From: Candidatus Tethybacter castellensis
Lineage (GTDB): Bacteria > Pseudomonadota > Gammaproteobacteria > Tethybacterales > Tethybacteraceae
DNA length: 59,571 nt
NCBI GenBank assembly: GCA_036679665.1
Contig: JAZHEJ010000040.1
Coordinates: forward strand, 1-59,571
Direction: 5' to 3'
Position numbers and translations under genes: made by a program. Positions 15,088-28,624 of this stretch are shown in pieces; position 1 is the first letter of the stretch; the number at the start of each line of letters is the position of its first letter. The notes beneath the pieces are model-generated. The model was not told the origin of the DNA. It did no database searches and worked only from the letters and a program-made list of their open reading frames with translations.

Positions 15088-15693
15088 CTAGCGGTATTCG
15101 GAGTCGGCGTTTCTTGCTTTGGCGATTTCAGCTTCGTGCTTGTCGCCGACTTCCAACAACATATCTTTGGTGTAGTAAAGATCGCCTCTTCGTTCACCGT
15201 GATATTCATAGATCTGCGTTTCGACGATTGCGTCAACCGGACACGCCTCTTCACACAAGCCGCAATAGATGCACTTGACCATGTCTATGTCATACCTGGT
15301 GGTTCGGCGCGAACCGTCATCGCGCACTTCAGATTCAATATGAATCGCCATTGCCGGACACACCGCCTCGCATAACTTGCAGGCTATGCATCGTTCTTCA
15401 CCATTGGGATAGCGGCGTAACGCATGAAGTCCGCGAAACCGCGAACTCACCGGAGCCTTTTCTTCAGGATAGCGGACCGTGATTTTTTTAGTCAACATTT
15501 TGCGCCAGGTCAACAACAATCCACGCAACAATTCCTTTAACAAAAACGACTTGCCAACAATAGCCAGACGCTGACCGAATGTCACTGGTGCCAACCCGGC
15601 TTCAGCAGCACTGTTTTGGTCGCTTACCGAAATTTTCGATTGAGCTGGTGACGCTTTGTGTGCTTGCATATCAGTTTTGATGTTATTTTCCAA
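15088..15693 (-). CDS. nuoI: NADH-quinone oxidoreductase subunit I
   Basis: [29 protein letters not shown] and [17 protein letters not shown] (two 4Fe-4S motifs). Confidence 0.97.
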
Positions 15694-15695
15694 AA

Positions 15696-16763
15696 TCAGT
15701 TACCCCAAACCCATAGCGGCGTACGTTGCCAAAACCCAACTACGACTAACCAAACGATGGTTAGTGGTATAAACACTTTCCAGCCTAAACGCATGATTTG
15801 GTCATAGCGGTAGCGGGGAAAAGTTGCCCGAAACCACAAAAATAAAAATAACACAAACGCGGTTTTGAACACCAGCCAGACTAATCCTGGAATCCAGTTA
15901 AACGGCGCTATGTCGAACGGAGGTAACCATCCGCCCAAAAACATGGTGGCCGTCAATACCGAAATCAAAATCATATTCGCGTATTCCGCCAGGAAAAAAA
16001 TCGCAAACGCCATTCCTGAGTATTCGACGTGAAATCCTGCGACTAGCTCTGATTCTCCTTCAGCAACATCAAACGGAGCCCGGTTGGTTTCAGCGACACC
16101 GGAAATCAAATACACGACTAGCATCGGAAAAAGCGGTACAAAATACCAGGACAAGAAAGTAGCGCCTTGCTGTCCTTCTACGATCGCTGACAGATTTAGG
16201 CTGCCTGAAGCCATCAGCACGGTCACGAGTGCGAAACCCATCGCGATCTCGTACGACACCAATTGCGCCGCTGAGCGTAAGCAACCGAGTAGCGCGTATT
16301 TCGAATTGGACGCCCACCCGGCAATAATAATTCCATACACGCCCACCGAGGTCGCAGCCAGCACGAACATAAGCCCGGCATCAATATCGGCCAAAACCAG
16401 CTCGGCGGAAAATGGTATCACCGCCCACACCACCAATGCCGCGCTGATGGATATGGTTGGCGCGATTAAAAACAACATTTTGCTAGCTTCAACCGGCATA
16501 ATGATTTCTTTAAGCAGTAACTTTAGAACGTCGGCAAACGGCTGTAACAATCCATATTTGCCAACACGGTCAGGGCCTACGCGCAACTGCATCGACCCGA
16601 TTACTTTACGCTCAGCGTAGGTAAGATAGGCAACGCTAAGAATGAGCGGAATAACGATCGCCAATATTTTGATGATGGTAACCGTAAAGTATCCAACCCA
16701 ACCTGCATAAACTCCCATCCAAGGTTCAAGCAAGTCGGTTACCTCGTTATTGATAAATTCCAC
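15696..16763 (-). CDS. nuoH: NADH-quinone oxidoreductase subunit H
   Basis: [55 protein letters not shown]. Start placed at GTG 16763, overlapping the nuoG stop. Confidence 0.97.
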
Positions 16764-19186
16764 TACCCAACTCCCCCCACAGCTTGGTGTTCTGTGGTGA
16801 CCTGCCGTACCATAATACGTGAGCACGCACCGAGAATTGCGGTGTGATCATTGCCCCAAGGCAAGCGTGCGCACCCGCGAGCTAAGCTGTCATCAGCACG
16901 TACGATGCAGGTGACTTCAATATTAGACGCAGCTTGGTCCGCTAAGCTTACCAACGCCTGATCGCCTGGGCTGATTCCCAGTTGCGCCAGATCCGCAGGA
17001 TGCATAGACAGCATGCGTGAACGCGCGGCAATTTGAGTTTCCTGTAAAGGTACCGCTCGGCGGACAACCGAATCGCCGGCAAAATGCCCCACTTCCGCCA
17101 ACCGCTCAAATTCCCCGACCGCAAATTTTTCTTTAGCAACGGAACGCGGTGGTGGCATATTTGTCAGCTTACAGTTGAGCAGTTCACTGAAGTCTCCCGC
17201 CGTAGCCAACTTGGCTCGCGCCTGAATGATATCTTCAAAAGTAAAACCCGTAACATCCATCATATTAGCCAGTACGCGCAGAATTTTCCAAGTCGGCCGT
17301 GCTTCGCCCGGTGGAAGTACCGCAGGTTCCATCTTGGCGGCATTACCTTCAAGATTAACCAGTGTGCCCATACATTCACCAAATGACGTCGCGGGTAGCA
17401 TAATGTCGGCGTATTCATTTGCGCCCACGAAGTAACTACCGATATTGATGACGCATGCCTGTTCAAACGCCGCATGCGCTGAGTGTGGATCAGCGCAATC
17501 CAACGGTTCGCAGTCAATCAGCACATAGGCTTTTAACTGCTGGTTTATCATCTGACGGGAGTTTAAACCGGGTTGCTCTAGCTTTTCCAACATAAACCCG
17601 CGGTGTGGCGTCGCTCCGGCAAGCTCAATGCCGATCGCATTAGCTCCATCAACTAAAACTCCTTGAAAACCTTCTAGCAACGACGCAAGCTTGGCGGCCA
17701 GCCGATAAATAAGCGCGTAATCGGTAGCGTTTTGCGCTTGTGCGCCAAGCCAAATCGCGGGATTCTTACGCTCTTGCAGTTGCTTGGCAAATTGCCGATG
17801 CCGCTCGCTAGGCTCACCGAAATCGGTTATCCAGGTTGGTAACGACTCGCCCGCGGATACCATACACTGACAAAGAGCAGCAAGCGTATAGGCATATTTA
17901 GAAGGCGGCACAATAAACTGGTCAGCTATCGGCAGATTGCCGGCCAAGTCCAAAGAACCGACCGCATGGATACCTTTGGCTGCTAATTGCGTAGCGTTGC
18001 GCAGCCTGATCGGTAACAGCGGCAATTCGTTGGCAGGATCAGAGCCGATCAGCAAGGCTCCGTCAAGGTTGTAAATTTCCTCTATCGAAACTCCCAGCCA
18101 CGCCACACCCTGCTGATACCCGTCCAGCTCAAAGTCCTGTTGGCGCAAACGAAAATCTATGTTGAATACGTTAATTGAGCGAAACAGGTCAGCCGCGAGC
18201 ATCGCTTCTTCACACGATACTTGCGGGCCAAGCAAAACGCCGACCTGGTCAGCGCCGTAACTATTGATAATATCCGTTAGCTGTTTGACTGCGTAACTTA
18301 AAGCCGCCTGCCACTCTACCCGCTGTGTTTTGGTCGCGTCAGGTTTTTTGATATAAGGATGTAACAACCGGGCGGCGGAATTTACCCCGGTGTATGCGAA
18401 GCGGTCGCGATCGGATATCCAACATTGATTAATCTCTTCATGGTCTCTGGGTATGACCCGTTTAATCTGCTGATCTTTGGAGTGAATATGGATATAACTG
18501 CCCCAAGAATCATGTCGCGCCACCCCGGCTGTGCGTTTCAATTCCCAAGTGCGCGCCGAAAAGCGATACGGTTTGGAATTCAACGCTCCTACCGGGCATA
18601 TATCGATCATGTTGCCGGATAACTCAGAATCGACGGTGCTTTCAATATAAGGCATGATTTCGGAATGCTCGCCCCGGCCGACCATTCCAAGTTCCATATT
18701 GCCTGCAATTTCCTGACCAAAACGCACGCAACGCGTACAGTGGATACATCTGGTCATCACCGTGGTTATCAGCGGACCCAAGTGTTTTTCAAACACAACA
18801 CGCTTTTTTTCGGTATAACGGGTCGCCGATGCCCCATAGCCCACGGCAAGATCTTGTAATTGGCATTCGCCGCCTTGGTCGCAGATCGGGCAATCGAGCG
18901 GATGATTGATGAGCAAAAATTCCATCACCCCACGTTGCGAAATCTGAGGTTTCGGCGAATTAGTGTCAATCACCATACCGTCGGTCACATATGTTGCGCA
19001 AGACGGCATTGGTTTGGGAGCTTTGTTAATTTCAACCAAACACATTCTGCAGTTGGCCGGGATGGTCAGTTTGGGATGGTAGCAAAAATGCGGTATATAG
19101 ACCCCGGCCTGCCGACAGGCCTCAAATACCGTGGTCCGTCCACGCACATTCCGCTTTTTGCCATTAATGGTGATTTTGACGTCCAT
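16763..19186 (-). CDS. nuoG: NADH-quinone oxidoreductase subunit G
   Basis: [10 protein letters not shown]...[35 protein letters not shown]. Start ATG 19186. Confidence 0.97.
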
Positions 19187-19203
19187 AGGTCCTCGCGATG
19201 CGA

Positions 19204-20487
19204 CTAGCAACCGAATCCTGTGGTAACCATCAGCTCTTGTTCGGTTACGGCGTATTCGAATTCTTCGCCAAAATGCTTCAGAAAACTGACTATCGGGGTG
19301 GCCGCCGCCGCACCCAACGCACAGATTGTATGGCCGTCTATATTGTGGGCCACTTGTTTGAGCAACTCAATATCTTCAGGCTTACCATCGCCACATTTAA
19401 TCCTGTTTACCACTCGCCATAGCCAACCGGTTCCTTCTCGACACGGTGTGCACTGCCCGCAGGATTCTTCGTGATAAAAATATGCTAGCCTCTCTAGCGC
19501 TGTTACCATACAGGTTGTTTCGTCCATGACGATCACCGATCCCGCTCCTAAGATTGAACCGGCCTTGGAAATCGAATCGTAATCCATATTCATCTGCATC
19601 GCCACTTCAGCCGGCAACACGGGTGTTGAAGATCCGCCGGGAATAACCGCTTTGAGCTTTTTGCCGTTGCGCATCCCGCCCGCCATTTCCAACAAGGCGG
19701 CAAACGGCGTACCCAGCGGTACTTCGTAATTGCCCGGTTTTGCAACATGGCCGCTTACCGAAAATATTTTAGTACCTCCGTTATTGGTTTTTCCCAATTT
19801 CAAAAACTCATCCGCACCGGTCTTTAATATGTAGGGTACGCAAGCGAATGTCTCCACGTTATTTATCGTAGTCGGCCGACCATACAGACCGAAAGATGCC
19901 GGGAAAGGCGGCTTGTTGCGCGGTTGGCCTTTTTTGCCCTCAAGCGATTCCAACAGCGCAGTTTCCTCGCCACAAATGTAAGCGCCCCACCCGCAATGAG
20001 CGTGCAACTCAAATGAAAAATCGGTTCCAAACAAACCTTTGCCGATCATTCCCGCGGACTGTGCCGCCATGAGCGCTTTTTCAAACTTTTCGTATACTTC
20101 GAAGATCTCGCCGTGTATATAGACATAGCCGATATTGGCGCCGATAATGTAAGCGGCGATCACCATTCCTTCGATCAGCAGATGCGGGTTGTACAATAAA
20201 ATATCGCGATCTTTGAACGTTCCCGGTTCGCCCTCATCGGCATTGCAAACCAAAAACACATTCCCTTTGATATTTGGCGGGATAAATCCCCATTTGAGTC
20301 CGGAAGGAAAACCGGCGCCGCCACGCCCGCGTAATGCGCTGTCTTTTATCTGGTTGCGCAATTGGCCCGGTTCAATCCGCTTGGCAAGCACACCTTCCAA
20401 CACCTTATACCCGCCGTGTTTGCGGTAGATTTCGATATCTGCCAGATCGCCCTTATCAAGATCAGCAAAGATTACTTCGTTAGCCAT
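19204..20487 (-). CDS. nuoF: NADH-quinone oxidoreductase subunit F
   Basis: LRGRGGAGFP, NADEGEPG, YICGEETALLES, ESCGQCTPCREG, ICALG. Start ATG 20487. Confidence 0.97.
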   Translation of the reverse strand: MANEVIFADLDKGDLADIEIYRKHGGYKVLEGVLAKRIEPGQLRNQIKDSALRGRGGAGFPSGLKWGFIPPNIKGNVFLVCNADEGEPGTFKDRDILLYNPHLLIEGMVIAAYIIGANIGYVYIHGEIFEVYEKFEKALMAAQSAGMIGKGLFGTDFSFELHAHCGWGAYICGEETALLESLEGKKGQPRNKPPFPASFGLYGRPTTINNVETFACVPYILKTGADEFLKLGKTNNGGTKIFSVSGHVAKPGNYEVPLGTPFAALLEMAGGMRNGKKLKAVIPGGSSTPVLPAEVAMQMNMDYDSISKAGSILGAGSVIVMDETTCMVTALERLAYFYHEESCGQCTPCREGTGWLWRVVNRIKCGDGKPEDIELLKQVAHNIDGHTICALGAAAATPIVSFLKHFGEEFEYAVTEQELMVTTGFGC

Positions 20488-20685
20488 GCAATTGAAGTTA
20501 CTAAATCCAGCACGCAATCATCGCTAGCGTTTATTTTACCTGCAACACGACCGAGTATCGACAAAATACGTCGCTCGACCCTCCAACTTGTTTGGTCTGG
20601 GTATACATTACATTGGATAATTCGTAAGTATTAATGTAGATTATGCTATATTCCGCTAGCATCAGCTATTGCCTTTTTTAATTTA

Positions 20686-23127
20686 ATGGATCCAAAATAC
20701 GGTTTTAACGCTGTCGAACGCAAAATCCAGCAACGTTGGGCTAAGCAAGACTGCTTTACGGTCAACGACGACGACCCTCGTCCCAAATACTACAGTTTGT
20801 GTATGTGGCCCTACCCTTCAGGCGATCTACACGTGGGTCATCTGCGCAACTACGCGATCGGTGATGTCTGGGCACGCCACAAACGTATGCTAGGTTTCAA
20901 CGTTCTGCAACCGATGGGCTGGGATGCGTTCGGCAAAGATGCTGAACTCAAAGCCAATAAATTAGGCGTTCACCCCGCTAAGTGGGTCAAACAAAATACG
21001 GCCAATATGCGCCGCGAGCTCAAAGAGCTTGGCTTTATGATTGACTGGAACCGAGAACTCAACGCTAGCAATCTTAAATATTACCGCTGGGAACAACTAC
21101 TGTTCGTGCGCATGTGGGAACAAAATCTTGTCTATTACGAACCCACTAAAGTACTATGGGACAAAGCCACCAAAACCGTAACCTCGCGTCGCGATATAGA
21201 CGACGGCAAAGTGGCCAAAGAAGACATTGAGATCAAGGTTATGCCTGCCTATCTGATGCGCCTTCGCGAGTACGCCAATCAATTGCTTGACGGTCTGACG
21301 CAGGTTAACTGGCCGGAAAAAATTATCAAAGACCAGCAGTACCTGATCGGGCGGTCGGAGGGAATGACGTTGCATTTTGCGCTAGTCGGCAATGCGCCGG
21401 TCGATGCGCTTGAGGTATATACCACTCGTCCAGATACCATCTGCGGCGTCACCTACATGGCGGTGGCCGCAAGCCATCCTTTGGCACAAGCGGCAGCCTC
21501 TGACAATCCGAAACTGGCAAAATTCTGTACGCAGTGCGAACAAACCTTGCCCATGGACGCCGGCAATCCTCACACCGAAAAACAAGGCATGCCTTTGGAC
21601 TTTACAGTTGTCAATCCGGTTTCTGGCAAACATGTCCCGGTATGGGTTGCCGATTACGTGGTCGATGACTACGGAAGCGGCGCGCTAATGGGCGTGCCTG
21701 CTCATGATGAACGCGATTTTAAATTTGCCACCCGGTATCAGATTCCGATCATCCGTGTCATCAACTTGGATCAACAAGATCCTCATCGGCCAATTACTCA
21801 AGCCGAAACATCCTCCGGAATTGCCGTCAACAGCGGCGAACTGGACGGCCTTGATCTTAAAGGCTGCGTAAGCAAACTGGAAGAAATGCTCGGTCCTGAC
21901 AAAGCGCGCCGCGATTATGGACTAAGCTTACGCGACTGGCCGATTAACCGCCACATGTACTGGGGAACCCCGATCCCCATCGTTATCTGTTCCGACTGCG
22001 GACGTGTTCCCGTCCCGGAACATCAGTTGCCGGTATCACTACCCAACGATTTTAAACACGGTCCGCAGGCATTGGCCGACCACCCTGATTTTGCTTTTTG
22101 TCCATGCCCGCGATGCGGTGCCAAGGCACGCCGGGAAACCGACACCATGGACACTTTTGTGAATTCCGCGTGGTACTTCGCGCGCTTTACCTGTCCTGAT
22201 AATTCCACGCAAATGATTGATAACCGAGCCAAGCGGTGGCTTCCTTGCGATCATTATTTCGGTGGTGACGAACACGCCCAAGGCCATCTGGTTTACGCGC
22301 GTTTTATACACAAAGTGTTGCGCGATCTCGGCCTGTATCCAAAAGGGTGCGGGGACGAACCTTTCCAAGCCTTGCTGTGCCAGGGCATGGTACTAGGTGC
22401 CGATGGTAAAAAAATGTCCAAATCACAAGATAACACTATCATGGCCAAGCATATTCTTGATTGCTACGGCGCGGACACCGCACGGTTGTACATAATTGGC
22501 ATGGGTAATCCGAAAGATGCCTACCCGTGGAACGAAGAGCATGTCAAAGACCATGCCATGTTTTTACAAAACTTGTGGCAATTGGCCCTAAAACGCCGCG
22601 ATCAGATTGCCGCGGGCAAAGAGCAAAAACTTGCCCCGGAACTCCAACTCAACCTTAACAAAATCCTCAATAACATTGATCGCAACTTGCGCGATCAACA
22701 CCTGAATAATTTGGTCTTCGGAGGCATTCACAGCATCCGCAACCTTATCCGGGACAACGCCGACAGCGCCGCAATGCAATATCAAGGTTTCATGCACTTG
22801 CTCAAAGTGATGAATCTAATCTGCCCTCATATCGCCGAAGAGCTATGGCAACAGCTTGGCTTTGAAGGTCTGGTTATCGACTCCGCTTGGTGGCCCGCTT
22901 TGACCGATGCAGATCTACACAGTGCCACAACCGTATTTGTAGTGCAGGTAAATGGCAAACGACGAGACCAATTTGAAGCCCCGTTTGACACCGACGCCAC
23001 CGAATTACTCGAATTAGCACAACAGCGTCCTAACATCGCCCGCTATATTTCAGGCAAGCAAATTGCCAAAAGCAAGGTGATCCGACAAGGCAACAGTCAT
23101 GGTCTCATTTTTTTCGCCCTAAGATAG
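20686..23127 (+). CDS. leuS: Leucyl-tRNA synthetase, copy A (catalytic motifs intact, divergent)
   Basis: PYPSGDLHVGH (HIGH 20830-20841), MGWDAFG, CP1 TTRPDT and AHDERD, DTMDTF..SAWY, KMSKS (22411-22425), C-terminal QVNGK. Confidence 0.92.
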   Translation: MDPKYGFNAVERKIQQRWAKQDCFTVNDDDPRPKYYSLCMWPYPSGDLHVGHLRNYAIGDVWARHKRMLGFNVLQPMGWDAFGKDAELKANKLGVHPAKWVKQNTANMRRELKELGFMIDWNRELNASNLKYYRWEQLLFVRMWEQNLVYYEPTKVLWDKATKTVTSRRDIDDGKVAKEDIEIKVMPAYLMRLREYANQLLDGLTQVNWPEKIIKDQQYLIGRSEGMTLHFALVGNAPVDALEVYTTRPDTICGVTYMAVAASHPLAQAAASDNPKLAKFCTQCEQTLPMDAGNPHTEKQGMPLDFTVVNPVSGKHVPVWVADYVVDDYGSGALMGVPAHDERDFKFATRYQIPIIRVINLDQQDPHRPITQAETSSGIAVNSGELDGLDLKGCVSKLEEMLGPDKARRDYGLSLRDWPINRHMYWGTPIPIVICSDCGRVPVPEHQLPVSLPNDFKHGPQALADHPDFAFCPCPRCGAKARRETDTMDTFVNSAWYFARFTCPDNSTQMIDNRAKRWLPCDHYFGGDEHAQGHLVYARFIHKVLRDLGLYPKGCGDEPFQALLCQGMVLGADGKKMSKSQDNTIMAKHILDCYGADTARLYIIGMGNPKDAYPWNEEHVKDHAMFLQNLWQLALKRRDQIAAGKEQKLAPELQLNLNKILNNIDRNLRDQHLNNLVFGGIHSIRNLIRDNADSAAMQYQGFMHLLKVMNLICPHIAEELWQQLGFEGLVIDSAWWPALTDADLHSATTVFVVQVNGKRRDQFEAPFDTDATELLELAQQRPNIARYISGKQIAKSKVIRQGNSHGLIFFALR

Positions 23128-23220
23128 CCTGACTTTTATTATGTTTTTGCTCACGACTTGCCGAACCATGTCACAGCGGCACACAAACTCGACATATCAG
23201 CTAGCGCCACGCTTCGTCAC

Positions 23221-26200
23221 ATGAGCATCGACACCGGTTATGACCATGCCCGCATTAAGCGCCAGGCGCAATCGCGCTGGGCGGCAAAAAACAAATCACA
23301 CATAGCCAAAGCTGATGGCTCCGGTGAATTTTGCTGTCAAGCCATGTTCGCAGATCTGGCCGGCAAATTTCATCTAGGGCACTGTCGTCGCTATGTATTG
23401 AACGATATCATGACCCGCTTTCAACTTATGCAAGGCCGCAACACCAAGCAAGTTGTTGGTTTCGAAACCTATGGATTACAGGTTCATCTTGCTGCGCGTG
23501 ACGCAAATCTTGATCCGGAAAAATGGGCTGTGGAAACGACGGCGCATGCCGTTACCACACTGAAAGAATTGGGAATTTTGACTGATTGGAACAAGATAGT
23601 TGTTACCAATTCCGCCCAACAATGTCACATGCAACAACAATTGTTTCTTCACCTGTGGAACGCTGAGAACTCACCGATTTTGCGCAAAAAACAGCCGGGA
23701 ATTGCTTACTGGGATCCGGGAACTCGCATGTATTTATCGTTGCGGCAGTTAGTCAACGGCCGCGGCCCAGAATCCGGCATGCTGACCGAAATTCGTAATA
23801 TTTCAAATTACGCTCTTTCAATAAGTCATCAACTTGCCGACGATTTGTTACAAAATTTGGAGACCCTACCGCGCTGGGACCGCCGGGTTAAAAACATGCA
23901 GCGCGAGAGCATCGGCCGCGAAAACGGACTGACCATCTCTTTTGATTTGCTTGATCGCAACGGCAAGCCCCTACCCGCGGTTCAGGTGTTTACCTCGCAT
24001 CCGGATACGATTATGGGCACGACGTTTTTGGCCGTGGCCACCACTCATCCGCTTGCCCGTAAAGTTGCCCGGGACGATCCGCAAATAGCGACATTCTGCG
24101 AAGCCGTAAACCATCCCAACTACGCGATTGAAAAACTTGCCGAAGATAAACGACAAGAAGGCATGCCTTTGGGAATTTACGCGATTAACCCGGTTACCGG
24201 AGATCATGTGCCGGTATGGGTCGCCAACTATGTGATCGCAGATTACGGAACTAGCGCGGTGCTAGGCATCCCCGCTCACGATCAGCGCAATTACAACTTT
24301 GCGCAACGGCACAATTTGCCGATGCGTAAAGTCGCGAGAACTTCCGATCAGGACATAGCTGCTCCGCTTACCAAACCTTTAGTGGATAAATTCGCCCTTG
24401 TCTGCAACAGCGGTTCGCTGGAACAACCGCTCAATCGGCTCAAAAAAGCTTTGCAAAATGAACTGCAATCACGTCAGCCTCAAGACGGCAGCAATCCCGA
24501 CACGCTGATCCGGCAAAGATATTTTGACCAACAGATTAATCTTTGCATCCATGACCTGCTGACCAAACGCGACATCAAAGTCAGCCCGACGGCGGTATCA
24601 AGGCTGCGAAGCTGGCCGATAAGTCAACCTGATTACTGGGGATGTCCGGTCCCGCTGGTTCATTGTTCGCAATGCGGCACAGTTCCGGTTCCAGGCGAGC
24701 AGTTGCCGCTGACGTTGCCGCAATACCGGGATAATCAAGACAGCCTGGATTGCTATCCGGATTTTATCGCTTGCGTTTGTCCACAATGCGGTGCGGACGC
24801 TCAACGGGAAACTGATACGCTTGATCCGTCATTTAGTCTTTCGTGGATGTCGCAATCTAAAAACATGACTAACGCCAAGTTGCCGGACGCATCGTTGGAT
24901 TATTACTGTTGCGGTGCGGAACAAGCCACCAGCCATCTGCTTTGCGCCCGAATTTTGCAACACCTGTTAGCCCGATCTGGCGTTGAACAAAATGAAACCT
25001 TCGACGAACCGTTCACCGAGGTGTTCAGTCCGGGAATGGTGATGAACTATGGCCTGCCGATGACCAAGTCATATGCCAATGCCATTGATCCAACCCAGTT
25101 GCTGGATAACTACGGGGCGGATATGCTCAGGCTTTATCTGTCTGCAATCGAAAATCCTCGCAACAACCTTCACTGGGATTCAGACAAACTTATCAGTTTG
25201 CAAGGAATCATCATTTCCTCCGAGCTCGTCAAGCTGCGTTGCGGGACCTTAACCGGCCTTCAACTTGATTTGGTGCATAATTTGCTCTCTAAAAGTGAAA
25301 TTAATCGTTTACAAAAAGGGCTGATCAATCGTTCTGAATTCAAACAACTAAAAACCGGTAAACTTGAAGCGAGCAAATACGCCCAAGTCAAAGAACTGAT
25401 TGGCGAAGGAGCGATCATTCGTTTGCAATCAGGCCTGCTCAACGAAGCCCAGGCGCGTCAGCTACGCAATGGCGAACTGGAAAATGCCAAGTTGCGCGAG
25501 GTACTGACAATAATTGATGAATTTCAGCTTAACCATTTGCGCAACGGACTACTAGATAAAAATGAATTTCGGCTGTTGCAGATCGGCAAGCTTGCCGGTA
25601 AAAAACTATCCGCTGTCCAAAAGCTTGTCCCGGCCAAGGTACTGTCCGAATTACAGACAAATTCGATTGATCCTGACGAACCTGGCGCGGTAAGTACGCT
25701 ACAAGAGCGGTTGTTGGACAACTTTGAACGCGAAGCCTGGCTTGAATACACAACTGAAGTTGAAATGTTGCGCAAAGTCCGCACGATACTTACCGAGGAT
25801 GAGATCAGTTGTATGCAAAAAGGCCTGCTCAATCAACAAGAATTCGCTGCTTTGCGCGCCAAGAAATTACCCGAAGAAAAAATGGCTCGGGTGCGCGCGA
25901 TACTCAATGATAACGAAATTCTGCGCTTACAAGAAGGACTGTTGTCGCGCGAAGAAATCTTTCAGCTCAAAGCTGGCAAGCTAGCTGCAAAGCGCCTGCA
26001 TGCAGTGCTGGAAATTATTGACGAAAAACAAATTAAACAACTGCAAAACGGGGTATTGCAACCATCTGAACACGAACAACTACGCAAAATTTTAGGCAGT
26101 AGCCGCAAAATGGCTCAATTACGCGCAGGTACTTTAGGTGAAGACAAGCTTCGCCAAATTCGCGAGCAATTTACCGCTAATCAGCTTGAGCGCTATCAGC

Positions 26201-27147
26201 AAGCTTGCCTCAGTGCCGACACCATGGCGAGACTCGCGAACTTTATCAGCACCGCGCAAATGAACCGATTGGTAAATTTCGTTTCTGACGTCAAGCAGAA
26301 GCAATTGAAAAAAGTTCTCTCCGTAAAACAACTGAAGTTATTGCGGCAACGCAAATTAGGCAAGCAGTTGCGATTTCCTTTGTTAAAATTTATTGATCAG
26401 CGCCTAGAAAATAAACTGTTCAATTTTCTTACCAAACAAGCTCAAGAGCGACTGTTTGACTATTTGCCCTATGAACGCATGGAGCAGTTGCTTGGATTTA
26501 GCGAATACCTATGGCAGCTTGTTACTTCACGGCAGAAGATGATTATCCAAGGATCCAAATCGCGCAGTGGCACCCAAAGTGCGCGGCGTTGTCAGCTTCA
26601 CAAAACCCTAAAAGCGATTAACGCCTGTTACACCCCCGAATCACATAACGCCGACAAATCTGAAGCGGGAGGGATGGAACTGAACAAAATGGTCACGCGT
26701 TGCAAAGATATTATCGTGCTGCTAGATGAAGCGTGCGACCCTGACGAAGCCGATGATTGCGCCTTTGCTTCCGAAGCGGTCACCATCTTGTTGCAGGTCC
26801 TACATCCGATCATGCCCCATATAACCGAAGAATTGTGGGCGATGTTACAAATGCCGCAGTTGCTAGTTGAAACACCTTGGCCGCAACCAGATCAGGCGGC
26901 ATTGGAATTTTTTACCGATGTTACATGCATCATCCAAGAAAATGGCCGCAAGCGCCATGCGTTTAGCTTATCTGCCAGCGCAGACCCCGCTACCACCATT
27001 GAGCTCGCCAGCGCCGAACTGAACGAATTAGCGATTCGCCAAGGCCATTGTGGTTTTCCGAGTTTAGGCAAGCAGGTAGTACGTATTGAGCATGCCAAAA
27101 AACAAGATCAGATTGTTATCAACTTCGTGCTATACCTTCATAATTAA
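23221..27147 (+). CDS. Leucyl-tRNA synthetase paralog, copy B (degenerate active and editing sites, ~430-aa repeat insertion)
   Basis: LeuRS collinearity: HLGH 23371-23382, WDP...GRG, TSHPDT, PVWVANYV, AHDQRN, CxxC knuckles, PMTKS 25057-25071, LHPIMPHITEELW, QENGR. Start probably ATG 23221 (ORF is open from TTG 23158). Confidence 0.88.
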   Translation: MSIDTGYDHARIKRQAQSRWAAKNKSHIAKADGSGEFCCQAMFADLAGKFHLGHCRRYVLNDIMTRFQLMQGRNTKQVVGFETYGLQVHLAARDANLDPEKWAVETTAHAVTTLKELGILTDWNKIVVTNSAQQCHMQQQLFLHLWNAENSPILRKKQPGIAYWDPGTRMYLSLRQLVNGRGPESGMLTEIRNISNYALSISHQLADDLLQNLETLPRWDRRVKNMQRESIGRENGLTISFDLLDRNGKPLPAVQVFTSHPDTIMGTTFLAVATTHPLARKVARDDPQIATFCEAVNHPNYAIEKLAEDKRQEGMPLGIYAINPVTGDHVPVWVANYVIADYGTSAVLGIPAHDQRNYNFAQRHNLPMRKVARTSDQDIAAPLTKPLVDKFALVCNSGSLEQPLNRLKKALQNELQSRQPQDGSNPDTLIRQRYFDQQINLCIHDLLTKRDIKVSPTAVSRLRSWPISQPDYWGCPVPLVHCSQCGTVPVPGEQLPLTLPQYRDNQDSLDCYPDFIACVCPQCGADAQRETDTLDPSFSLSWMSQSKNMTNAKLPDASLDYYCCGAEQATSHLLCARILQHLLARSGVEQNETFDEPFTEVFSPGMVMNYGLPMTKSYANAIDPTQLLDNYGADMLRLYLSAIENPRNNLHWDSDKLISLQGIIISSELVKLRCGTLTGLQLDLVHNLLSKSEINRLQKGLINRSEFKQLKTGKLEASKYAQVKELIGEGAIIRLQSGLLNEAQARQLRNGELENAKLREVLTIIDEFQLNHLRNGLLDKNEFRLLQIGKLAGKKLSAVQKLVPAKVLSELQTNSIDPDEPGAVSTLQERLLDNFEREAWLEYTTEVEMLRKVRTILTEDEISCMQKGLLNQQEFAALRAKKLPEEKMARVRAILNDNEILRLQEGLLSREEIFQLKAGKLAAKRLHAVLEIIDEKQIKQLQNGVLQPSEHEQLRKILGSSRKMAQLRAGTLGEDKLRQIREQFTANQLERYQQACLSADTMARLANFISTAQMNRLVNFVSDVKQKQLKKVLSVKQLKLLRQRKLGKQLRFPLLKFIDQRLENKLFNFLTKQAQERLFDYLPYERMEQLLGFSEYLWQLVTSRQKMIIQGSKSRSGTQSARRCQLHKTLKAINACYTPESHNADKSEAGGMELNKMVTRCKDIIVLLDEACDPDEADDCAFASEAVTILLQVLHPIMPHITEELWAMLQMPQLLVETPWPQPDQAALEFFTDVTCIIQENGRKRHAFSLSASADPATTIELASAELNELAIRQGHCGFPSLGKQVVRIEHAKKQDQIVINFVLYLHN
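25282..26100 (+). repeat. Protein-level tandem repeat, 38-aa (114-nt) period, inside leuS copy B
   Basis: Units begin at 25282, 25396, 25510, 25786, 25900 and 26014 (last one partial), plus a degenerate unit at 25624. Consensus (I/L)(I/L)xxxEIxxLQxGLLxxxEFxxLxxGKLxxxKLxxVxx. Confidence 0.9.
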
Positions 27148-27149
27148 GC

Positions 27150-27602
27150 ATGAATTTTTTATCGTTGATGACGGTGGCGGTACTTATCACCGGTTGTGTC
27201 TTGAGCGCCACTGGTGACAACTCATTGCCACTGAAATCAATTACGGTTTCCGCATCCGACTCTGAGTTGAACGATGAATTTGAACACCAACTTGCTAATC
27301 TTGCCTTAACCGGCAATCGCCTGATCTCGCTTACCCTTCGCGAAAGCACTTCCAACTCGATCACGGCGCGCGCCGCGGACGGATCTGGATCCAAGCGCCG
27401 CCTTAGCTACGCATTACACTATCGGATTGAAACTACGGATCAACCAGAATTTAACGGAGTAATCAGGAAAAAACAGTCGTTAGACCACAGCGAAAATACT
27501 CATTTAGCAAACCGACTTGCTTTTGAGAGATTTTTCTTCGCTGCTCGCACTGAGAGCATTGATAAACTAATCAACACGCTCAAGATTCGGAACTGGCAAT
27601 GA
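27150..27602 (+). CDS. lptE: LPS-assembly lipoprotein (divergent)
   Basis: Lipobox-like LITGC; located between leuS and holA. Confidence 0.75.
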   Translation: MNFLSLMTVAVLITGCVLSATGDNSLPLKSITVSASDSELNDEFEHQLANLALTGNRLISLTLRESTSNSITARAADGSGSKRRLSYALHYRIETTDQPEFNGVIRKKQSLDHSENTHLANRLAFERFFFAARTESIDKLINTLKIRNWQ

Positions 27603-28624
27603 AAATCAGCAGCGCAGCGCTTGCTGCAAACTTGCAAAATCCACGTCCACCCTATCTGCTGCTCAATAATGAGCCAGTTCTACTAACTGAGGACCGGGAC
27701 AGTGTTCGCAAGGCATTAGCCTGCGACGAGCGTAAATTGTTTGTGTTGGATCAAGACTTTGATATGGAAGACGCTAAGCTGGAAGCATCGGCGGGTAATT
27801 TATTCGGCGGCTCCACTTTACTGGAGTTTATTTTAGTGGACGCGCTCAACGCGGACACCGCCAAACAACTTACCGCAATTGCCAAACTCGCGCAGGCTAA
27901 CCAGCGACCGGTTATCATCGCGAGCCCCAATATCGTACGCAAGGCGGCTTGGGTCAATCAACTAGAAGATTTTTTTACCGTGGTAACGCAAGTATTCGTA
28001 AAGCGACACAATATGTGTGGCTGGGTCAAGGCGCGAGGCAGAAGTTTTGGTCTAGATATAGATGATGAAGCTGCGCAGTACATTGCGGATATGACTGAAG
28101 GCAATTTGAGTTCCGCAGCTCAAGAAATTTCTAAACTCAAATTGTTACACGTTGGAAGCGAGCAGGTTAGCAGACAATTGGTACAGGAATTACTGGTGGA
28201 TCAAAGTCGCGATGATCTTTTTTCATTGCGTGAATCTTTGGCTGCGGGCAGCAGTGTTCGCTCTTTACGCGCGATTCGCAACCTCAAAGCGGCTAAGGTT
28301 CCCCCTACCTTGCTGGTTTGGGCACTGGCCGAAGAAACCCGTAGTTTGTTAAGATTGATTGACAGACACAGCAAGCCGCGTGGCGTATATGGTAAGCATC
28401 TTACTGATTTGGCCAACATCGCCAAACGGGTCCCCCGCACCGAGGTTAAATATTTGCTCGCGGTAATCGCCCGAGCTGACTGGGTTGCCAAGGGTATGAT
28501 CGTCGCGGATCCGTGGCAGGACTTTGAAAGAATCGCTATCGCTTTTACCCAACTGGTCAGTAACAATCGGTATAAATTTTTACTTCTTCAAAATGAATTT
28601 AAACCCCAAGTCAAAGCAAACTGA
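27599..28624 (+). CDS. holA: DNA polymerase III delta subunit
   Basis: YLL...EP.L, SAGNLFGG, EGNLSSAAQEISKL, D.VAKG; leuS-lptE-holA synteny. Confidence 0.88.
   Translation: MKISSAALAANLQNPRPPYLLLNNEPVLLTEDRDSVRKALACDERKLFVLDQDFDMEDAKLEASAGNLFGGSTLLEFILVDALNADTAKQLTAIAKLAQANQRPVIIASPNIVRKAAWVNQLEDFFTVVTQVFVKRHNMCGWVKARGRSFGLDIDDEAAQYIADMTEGNLSSAAQEISKLKLLHVGSEQVSRQLVQELLVDQSRDDLFSLRESLAAGSSVRSLRAIRNLKAAKVPPTLLVWALAEETRSLLRLIDRHSKPRGVYGKHLTDLANIAKRVPRTEVKYLLAVIARADWVAKGMIVADPWQDFERIAIAFTQLVSNNRYKFLLLQNEFKPQVKAN

Follow-up and report, generated by a model that had tools for sequence, protein, structure and literature searches.

Leucyl-tRNA synthetase (LeuRS) ranks among the most evolutionarily stable synthetases (PMC5388404). 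Here we describe a tandem pair of leuS genes, copy A and copy B, on a 59,571-nucleotide (nt) stretch of DNA from Candidatus Tethybacter castellensis (contig JAZHEJ010000040.1 of assembly GCA_036679665.1; the whole stretch is called the window below). The closest parallels are two degenerate LeuRS paralogues of archaea, LeuRS-I and LeuRS2. According to the summary of Weitzel et al. (2020) in a later review (PMC9437257), LeuRS-I of the Sulfolobaceae cannot aminoacylate, binds tRNA-Leu and matters for fitness; like copy B, it is a divergent second LeuRS kept beside a functional one, with a role that is possibly tRNA-dependent. As summarized there, it differs in being archaeal-type, in not being described as tandem, in having a disrupted CP1 domain and in still making leucyl-adenylate, whereas in copy B the CP1 domain is the best conserved, the adenylation motifs have been lost, a 425-amino-acid (aa) insert is present and the functional copy was rewired as well. 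The Halobacteria, for example Natrialba magadii, also have two cytoplasmic LeuRS, of which LeuRS2 has drastically reduced charging and a preserved affinity for tRNA-Leu; that pair, however, is ancient and divergent, with chimeric bacterial/archaeal domains, and involves neither a recent tandem duplication nor a repeat insert (PMC4005665). The present locus is instead bacterial, tandem and datable, with a repeat array in one copy and a rewired other copy. To our knowledge, the characterized degenerate LeuRS paralogues are archaeal only.

Three further kinds of system are relevant for comparison. In Aquifex aeolicus, a single LeuRS has been cut into two complementary pieces, alpha and beta, and activity needs both polypeptides. 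A split of this type was rejected for the tandem pair, as A and B each span all LeuRS domains. We know of no LeuRS example of a non-catalytic synthetase subunit resembling HisZ. HisZ is a HisRS-like protein that serves ATP phosphoribosyltransferase as a regulatory subunit; in this case, as in the pseudo-dimeric TyrRS of trypanosomes, a dead synthetase paralogue or half is placed beside an active partner, but other synthetase classes and partners are involved (PMC9437257), and the A-B complex considered here is a proposal. AgnB2 of Agrobacterium radiobacter K84 is, like copy B, an extra bacterial LeuRS gene; it is, however, fully active, inhibitor-insensitive and linked to an antibiotic producer, whereas B lacks the catalytic motifs and was duplicated locally (PMC5059758). 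In the literature we found no paper discussing the B gene and no comparable bacterial case, in line with an earlier interpretation of the window made from its letters without database searches (the sequence-only reading), whose author knew of no described bacterial example. The B gene appears to stand undescribed in public databases under a generic name.

Two collinear LeuRS ORFs (open reading frames) of 813 and about 1300 aa, some 90 nt apart and directly upstream of lptE-holA-proA, had been recognized in the sequence-only reading and were recovered as such (Table 1). The first ATG of copy B lies at 23221, which would give a protein of 1308 aa and a gap of 93 nt between the genes. Both copies are LeuRS homologues of the bacterial type and contain the LeuRS editing domain (PF13603) together with class I catalytic and anticodon-binding Pfam domains, and their cores share 33% identity (E = 4e-116). 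Against TIGR00396, the bacterial LeuRS equivalog model with a cut-off of 548.4 bits, copy A scored above the cut-off (777.5) and copy B below it (435.7). The window genome is a 1.69-Mb metagenome-assembled genome (MAG), 87.6% complete, from the same family as "Betaproteobacteria bacterium AqS2" (Candidatus Amphirhobacter heronislandensis). AqS2 lives in the sponge Amphimedon queenslandica as a symbiont with vertical inheritance, has a reduced genome and belongs to the order Tethybacterales (PMC8546597). Our overall reading is that copy B is a non-catalytic, tRNA-handling partner of a catalytic copy A, and we give this reading about an even chance of being right. Judging from its motifs, copy A is inferred to be the only copy able to charge tRNA-Leu and is probably a rewired yet working LeuRS. 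Copy B, on the same kind of evidence, is quite probably not an aminoacylating enzyme.

The degeneration of copy B is a property of its whole family, as seen in an alignment of 11 B orthologues with residue numbers placed on the E. coli K-12 leuS sequence and checked. The KMSKS position reads PM[ATSD]xx, with K619 changed to Pro in all 11 members and K622 kept in 4 of them, the window copy included. At the HIGH position, H[LVM]GH is found in 8/11 and YLGQ, HAGS, SLGH or LNAGS elsewhere, including AqS2. The PYPSG motif, which holds the gating Tyr43, has been replaced, and the canonical GLPAENAA reads GLxVHLAA. The leucine-pocket residues Y43, F493, S496 and Y499, along with the ZN-switch residues, have been replaced as well and vary between orthologues. 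In the CP1 domain of copy B, T247, T252, D342 and R344 are retained and T248 is Ser; the editing position 345 is Asn in 8/11 members, Ser in 2/11 and Asp in 1/11. The HLGH and PMTKS motifs of the window copy are not conserved in the orthologues, so the function under selection must be independent of them.

These observations bear on the idea that B is a second active LeuRS, a specialized, stress-specific or inhibitor-resistant isozyme comparable to AgnB2 or the mupirocin-resistant IleRS2. Sponge holobionts are rich in natural products, and the window copy does have HLGH, PMTKS and the full LeuRS domain order. This possibility is nevertheless very improbable: Pro has taken the place of the first KMSKS Lys in all orthologues, the second Lys is gone in 7/11, HIGH is lost in AqS2 and others, the leucine pocket and ZN-switch residues are gone, the score lies under the TIGR00396 cut-off, and the gene arose by local duplication and not by transfer of a resistance gene. 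A resistance or self-immunity synthetase of the AgnB2 or MupA/MupB type was rejected on similar grounds, that is, the degenerate motifs, the local origin and scores against the NCBIfam MupA/MupB models (51.7/40.3 bits for B and 79.8/75.9 bits for A) far under the cut-offs of 1900. The sequence-only reading had also listed a toxin decoy among the roles of B, and this found no support.

What has been lost and what has been kept in B are not distributed evenly along the protein. Mean pairwise identity per domain was compared among A, B and the canonical LeuRS of the order, and in that sequence the values were 0.72, 0.41 and 0.68 for the N-terminal catalytic half, 0.67, 0.62 and 0.78 for the ZN domain, 0.65, 0.57 and 0.49 for the CP1 editing domain, 0.60, 0.46 and 0.47 for the anticodon-binding domain, and 0.51, 0.36 and 0.39 for the C-terminal domain. 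Relative to canonical LeuRS, B is thus least conserved in the N-terminal catalytic half, and its tRNA-holding modules are conserved equally or better. The ZN-like segment, with its Cys-free WDP...GRG..SG pattern, is among the two most conserved modules of B. A Foldseek search with the model of the C-terminal half of B matched only the LeuRS anticodon-binding and C-terminal domains.

Selection on the pair was estimated as the ratio of nonsynonymous to synonymous substitution rates (dN/dS). The distant pair G003/G004 was near saturation and was replaced by the close pair L063/L064, with a dS of about 0.3. Ratios were 0.03-0.065 for leuS-A, 0.10-0.13 for leuS-B, 0.08-0.11 for holA, 0.10-0.19 for proA and 0.16-0.22 for lptE. 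Within B, the editing domain showed 0.035, the N-terminal part 0.066, the insert 0.14 and the C-terminal part 0.20. Copy B is clearly under purifying selection and not decaying, as the sequence-only reading had proposed in suggesting that B is kept under selection.

The strong constraint on CP1 could also be explained if B were an enzyme with a new chemistry, in which CP1, with its Asp-to-Asn change, hydrolyses or binds another acyl-adenosine or acyl-tRNA, or in which leucine is transferred to some other acceptor from the Leu-tRNA-Leu made by A, as a parallel to aaRS-like enzymes that work independently of ATP. In its favor, CP1 has the lowest dN/dS in the protein and holds a large number of invariant residues specific to B, the Asn at position 345 is conserved and not random, and B-specific cysteines (C76 and C584-C585) sit in motifs of the synthetic site. 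The former amino-acid pocket, however, varies among orthologues, which argues against a conserved site for a new substrate, and no acceptor or pathway genes are linked, the neighbors being lptE, holA and proA. We hold this speculative reading, built by analogy, to be improbable. The cysteines themselves are a peculiar trait of the family: C76 (window 23383-23385), present in 10/11 members, directly follows HIGH (HLGHC, where the canonical residue is Val), and C584-C585 (24907-24912), present in 11/11, replace the "IG" of YIGGIEH to give YCCG. Both the HIGH and IGGIEH motifs are part of the synthetic site, and a new metal or redox site might arise from the cysteines together with the HIGH histidines.

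Copy A presents the opposite picture at the level of catalytic signatures, which are kept by A and lost by the B family, in agreement with the division of roles suggested in the sequence-only reading. HIGH, KMSKS and D80 (the amino-group-binding Asp, in GWD) are present and conserved across the A-type clusters, and the CP1 editing site is intact (T247, T248, T252, D342 and D345, in TTRPDT and HDERD, with the T-rich motif kept). On the other hand, A lacks canonical ZN-switch and priming residues (E169R, W177A/E/K, W223L and M536G, with TSRRD for LANEQ). The replacements are themselves fixed: MWPYPSGD, GKDAELKA and TSRR[DE] (canonical LANEQ) are common to 13/13 A-type clusters, as are IVKDQxYLIGR (W223L), SLRDWPINRxMYWG and FGGDEHAQGH (I531D, I535Q and M536G). 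In the LeuRS activation switch described in a 2026 study, E169 primes the 531-536 loop and then touches W223 and Y540, and W177 and R178 serve site closure and ATP binding (PMC13454842). In that work, the activation kcat of E. coli LeuRS fell 800-fold with W177A and 300-fold with R178A, the activation efficiency of Neisseria LeuRS fell 24-fold with E169G, and Gly at position 536 was deleterious (PMC13454842).

A generally raised rate does not account for the change in A. Identity between the window genome (G000) and G001, the member of the family with one canonical LeuRS, was 46% for LeuRS-A, about 58% for IleRS and 58% for ValRS, and within the B-carrying clade it was 64-66%, 59-65% and 63-70%, respectively. 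Since IleRS and ValRS show no matching drop, the change in LeuRS-A is a burst on the stem lineage. Of the 247 positions with at least 92% conservation across 39 canonical LeuRS, A retains 185 and B 126; 44 positions are lost from both copies, 18 from A only and 77 from B only. Between the two copies, losses show a positive correlation (odds ratio 3.4, p = 7e-5) and are not complementary, which gives no support to the subfunctionalization proposed in the sequence-only reading if this is understood in its classical form of complementary loss.

A very probable evolutionary history is that leuS was duplicated in place after the split from the G001 lineage and that both copies were then inherited vertically together. 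In a maximum-likelihood tree of 53 LeuRS sequences (818 columns, LG+C20 with posterior mean site frequencies, PMSF), A and B form sister clades (support 100/98), A+B is sister to the single canonical LeuRS of G001 (100/97), and all three fall within the clade of their own order (98/99). Because the grouping of two long branches can be an artefact, the tree was repeated without A, and B still grouped with G001 inside the order (SH-aLRT, the SH-like approximate likelihood ratio test, 100). Furthermore, A and B share derived states that are not found in G001 or others (N88L, D162T, A167S, E169R and F645Y, in E. coli numbering) and an insertion of 3-4 aa ahead of the final strand in the C-terminal domain. 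The subtrees of the two copies are congruent, with stem branches of 1.11 (A) and 1.70 (B) substitutions per site and a median terminal branch of 0.35. The in-place duplication of the sequence-only reading is thus borne out by the nested sister clades and the conserved synteny. Two other traits that it had emphasized are real and less telling. The leucine-specific domain is indeed missing from both copies, as it is from the LeuRS of G001 and from 6/9 other relatives aligned from the order, and a natural LeuRS without it is known from M. mobile, where a tetrapeptide takes its place (PMC3643597); its absence is therefore not special. The Betaproteobacteria-style, Cys-free ZN segment of B likewise exists. 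Judged from the aligned relatives, both traits are ancestral states of the order and not consequences of the duplication.

Horizontal acquisition of A or B, for instance from Betaproteobacteria, with the incoming gene landing beside the resident leuS, is hardly credible in view of this topology. The best PDB match is the LeuRS of Neisseria and B is just 30-35% identical to any canonical LeuRS, but the Neisseria match is explained by the betaproteobacterial ancestry of the lineage itself (Tethybacterales). Transfer of either copy was rejected because both nest in their own family beside G001, whether or not the other copy is included in the tree, and share derived states and indels.

The distribution of the pair follows the same pattern. 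In the GTDB family, A followed by B occurs in 4/5 species representatives, spanning 3/4 genera. In the fifth, G001, a single canonical leuS ends in a stop codon that overlaps the beginning of a lipoprotein gene, with holA next; as leuS is directly followed there by the lptE-like gene and holA, B is truly absent from this locus. Outside the family, every genome searched has a single LeuRS. A third LeuRS homologue was sought, as the sequence-only reading had suggested, and none was found in the window genome at its 87.6% completeness, the other matches being ValRS, IleRS and MetRS, nor in the one-contig 1.9-Mb genome of a relative (G003). B stands directly after A in 10/10 loci examined, among them the window, G002-G004 and a 1.93-Mb contig (L065); in L061 and L063-L066, the stop of A and the start of B overlap by 4 nt and the stop of B overlaps the start of the next gene. 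In a large protein collection, the B family makes up about 12-14 clusters (90% identity), with lengths from fragments of 891 and 1037 aa up to full-length proteins of 1279-1325 aa, and orthologues in relatives measure 1030-1346 aa. A-type LeuRS form 13 clusters at 62-66% identity to A, below which the next best match falls sharply to 43%. The A protein of G004 has the same sequence as MBF2735169.1 of AqS2, and the AqS2 orthologue of B has been deposited as MBF2735170.1, "class I tRNA ligase family protein". One further B-carrying contig comes from the deep-sea sponge Iophon methanophila. The known B sequences number about a dozen, all from MAGs. The tRNA-Leu genes of the window genome are five ordinary isoacceptors with A73, and there is no extra or odd tRNA-Leu among them, which gives no support to a dedicated tRNA substrate of B.

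A functionless decaying duplicate, or an annotation artefact, has next to no chance of accounting for B. It is true that B evolves 2-3 times faster than A, that it is called as two ORFs in one assembly and that its insert is shortened in one lineage. Against this, B forms an uninterrupted frame of 1030-1346 aa wherever it is fully assembled, bar the one split copy, in genera sharing only about 40% identity, and its dN/dS is near that of essential neighbors. The genomes are also reduced (1.6-1.9 Mb), which argues against the carrying of 4 kb of useless gene. The split copy (L066, 8475-12450) is called as two overlapping ORFs (742 and 594 aa) that part within the insert. In another assembly of the same project (L061, 1674-2958), nuoF is also in two pieces, and the contigs of this project are named "contig_N" and are probably long-read; the split of B is therefore probably an indel error. 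Thus, the two scenarios that the sequence-only reading had named as its own undoing, decay and transfer from an unrelated clade with a canonical leuS elsewhere, both fail.

Several irregularities were recorded in individual assemblies. In G002, copy B is divided between two contigs. In AqS2 (G004; L010, 1309-5346), B seems to begin about 45 residues later than in the others, with 1259 aa at NCBI; it has LNAGS at the HIGH position and PGLTAELW for PHxTEELW and is the most eroded B seen, with its frame intact. In a one-contig 2.1-Mb genome of the same order (G012, C1:1308450-1310361), the sole leuS lies in three fragments with an in-frame TGA and TAA. The breaks come from sequencing error, or else the gene is a pseudogene, a remarkable state for the only LeuRS of a genome.

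The most distinctive novelty of B is its insert, built on a 38-residue unit of the form xEIxRLQxGLLxxxEFxxLRxGKLxxxKxxxVxxLL. Six clear units were counted, three at 25285-25626 and, after a long linker helix, three at 25789-26130, followed by "LVNF" mini-repeats of 12-13 residues. The repeats were resolved by a BLOSUM diagonal scan and are seen at the protein level only: Tandem Repeats Finder found none in the DNA of B, and BLASTP of the insert against itself returned the identity match alone. AlphaFold2 predicted an all-helical array for the insert by itself (predicted local distance difference test score, pLDDT, 86; predicted TM-score, pTM, 0.62), and the C-terminal half of B was modeled with a pLDDT of 78. 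With the insert model as query, Foldseek found no PDB match at E <= 0.001, and phmmer against 1.84 billion representative proteins found the insert in B-family proteins only (7 hits). The insert alone matched SHOCT (PF09851) with 24.1 bits, under the gathering cut-off (GA) of 27 (E = 2.8e-5), which is a sub-threshold resemblance only. SHOCT is a short domain proposed to mediate oligomerization (PMC3581485). The 38-aa units match its profile weakly and show a similar short two-helix pattern, but SHOCT is typically a single C-terminal module, whereas B has an internal array of six or more units (PF09851; PMC3581485). The insert is net basic (+9 to +33) in 8/11 members.

In sum, leuS was duplicated in place in an ancestor of the part of the sponge-symbiont family that includes AqS2, both copies changed in a burst, and they have been passed on together since then. 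Under the reading of B as a non-catalytic partner of A, copy A would charge tRNA-Leu with a ZN-domain switch and priming loop exchanged for new conserved motifs. Copy B would be a LeuRS-derived pseudo-synthetase whose family has lost the editing Asp, KMSKS, the ZN-switch residues and the leucine pocket and keeps under normal constraint the modules that hold the tRNA, namely, the CP1 pocket, which takes the 3' adenosine, the anticodon-binding domain and the C-terminal domain, which binds the elbow. It could then bind tRNA-Leu much as LeuRS does when resting or editing, the 3' end lying in the CP1 pocket, but would neither charge nor edit it. Whether as another subunit or as a close functional partner of A in leucylation, B may capture the tRNA and hand it over, or help to close the rewired active site of A, and its repeat arm might serve for oligomerization, as a scaffold or in RNA binding. 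The partnership with A is proposed from the operon coupling, the co-inheritance and the simultaneous burst in A, and for this part we put the chances a little short of even.

Several findings weigh against this reading. The losses in A and B are correlated and not complementary, B too being without E169, W177 and R178, and B is consequently not an obvious supplier of what A has lost. The window copy has HLGH and PMTKS and may thus have residual ATP binding in this orthologue. Operon linkage is equally expected of a tandem duplicate that has not moved. The rewiring of A could also have come about otherwise, for example, if the enzyme adapted to an inhibitor or drifted in a small population of symbionts. 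Finally, the insert is not basic in 3/11 members, and in one locus (L065, 8466-11558) B has 1030 aa with an insert about 290 residues shorter, the rest of B and the 4-nt overlaps being intact, so that the insert is not essential in full.

Alternatively, B may act independently of A as a tRNA-dependent regulator or sensor that binds (uncharged) tRNA-Leu by its CP1, anticodon-binding and C-terminal domains and signals or scaffolds through its SHOCT-like arm. It would then be a moonlighting pseudo-synthetase of the sort that has been proposed for LeuRS-I and LeuRS2 of archaea. The pattern of constraint, strongest on the tRNA-handling modules and the CP1 pocket while the catalytic motifs are lost, and the large new repeat arm of mostly basic charge would suit such a role, and tRNA-dependent roles outside translation have been suggested for LeuRS duplicates (PMC9437257). 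This explanation, however, leaves the simultaneous, conserved rewiring of A and the frequent translational coupling with A unaccounted for, and no recognizable partner or output domain is present, with no Pfam or fold match past the weak SHOCT resemblance. We consider it rather unlikely. A stricter version of the partnership would make the pair an obligate two-protein LeuRS of two full-length paralogues, in which A, having given up the canonical activation switch of ZN domain and priming loop, can leucylate efficiently only with the help of B. With its repeat arm, and held in a "resting/editing-like" state with tRNA bound, B would close the active site of A in trans, or capture the tRNA or hand it over. 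This stricter version is doubtful, with perhaps one chance in four.

Table 1. Features of the tandem leuS locus and adjoining genes (window coordinates).
Feature	Position	Strand	Remarks
leuS copy A	20686..23127	+	813-aa LeuRS, ATG start; presumed catalytic enzyme whose ZN switch and priming loop carry rewired motifs
A HIGH motif HVGH, residues 49-52	20830..20841	+	
A GKDAELKA replacing near-universal GLPAENAA	20932..20955	+	kept in 13/13 A-type clusters
A derived ZN segment, 2 aa shorter	21157..21243	+	E169R, D162T, W177A, N168R (E. coli numbering)
A priming loop FGGDEHAQGH (canonical IGGIEHAxxH)	22258..22287	+	I531D, I535Q, M536G
A KMSKS, residues 576-580	22411..22425	+	motif
A-B spacer	23128..23220	+	30 nt up to TTG 23158, or 93 nt up to ATG 23221
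leuS copy B	23158..27147	+	1329 aa from TTG; LeuRS-derived paralogue, synthetic and editing sites degenerate
B HLGH (HIGH-like)	23371..23382	+	HIGH position
B ZN-like segment YWDPGT..LSLRQLVNGRGPESGML	23707..23784	+	without E169, W177, R178
B CP1 editing-like domain, most constrained part of B	23908..24423	+	PF13603 residues 251-422, E = 4.9e-49
B Asn378, aligned with universal editing Asp (E. coli D345)	24289..24291	+	
B-specific longer linker from CP1 to second catalytic half, residues 423-478	24424..24591	+	
B second zinc-binding motif (ZN2): four invariant Cys C503/C506/C541/C544	24664..24789	+	
B PMTKS at KMSKS position	25057..25071	+	
B 425-aa helical-repeat insert, residues 684-1108	25207..26481	+	start of anticodon-binding domain, after KMSKS region
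B rest of anticodon-binding domain and C-terminal tRNA-elbow domain	26482..27144	+	PF08264; QENGRKR motif, NFV end
150-aa lipoprotein at lptE position	27150..27602	+	lipobox LITGC
holA (DNA polymerase III delta)	27599..28624	+	TIGR01128 130.4 bits, cut-off 80

The gene order in the window is leuS-A, leuS-B, an lptE-like gene, holA and proA, and a search of the A-B spacer found no terminator-like site. The lipoprotein at the lptE position matched no Pfam or NCBIfam model, even at E = 1, and is either a very divergent LptE or a replacement of it. As listed, the proA ORF (TTG 28524) shares about 100 nt with the 3' end of holA (28524-28624); the proA profile matches from residue 34 onward, so the true start probably lies further downstream than 28524. 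Upstream of leuS-A, nuoF and nuoG are divergent (15088-20685, - strand). The same arrangement is found in L061, L062, L065 and L066, with nuoH and nuoI in addition in the latter two, and in L063 and L064, both Amphirhobacter-like, the nuoF-nuoG place is taken by a gene for an AAA-ATPase.

These results describe a bacterial case with a clean natural history, that is, a datable duplication, strict co-inheritance in reduced symbiont genomes and a burst in both copies, with a sister lineage (G001) that never had B or lost it. Copy A, naturally without E169, W177 and M536, offers a natural experiment on how the activation switch of LeuRS can be replaced. Copy B offers a test of what a synthetase scaffold does after catalysis is gone and carries a confidently predicted helical-repeat array for which the model revealed no known structural relative. 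The host of AqS2, Amphimedon queenslandica, is an established model sponge. If the obligate-pair version were true, the family would hold the first heteromeric LeuRS to have arisen by whole-gene duplication.

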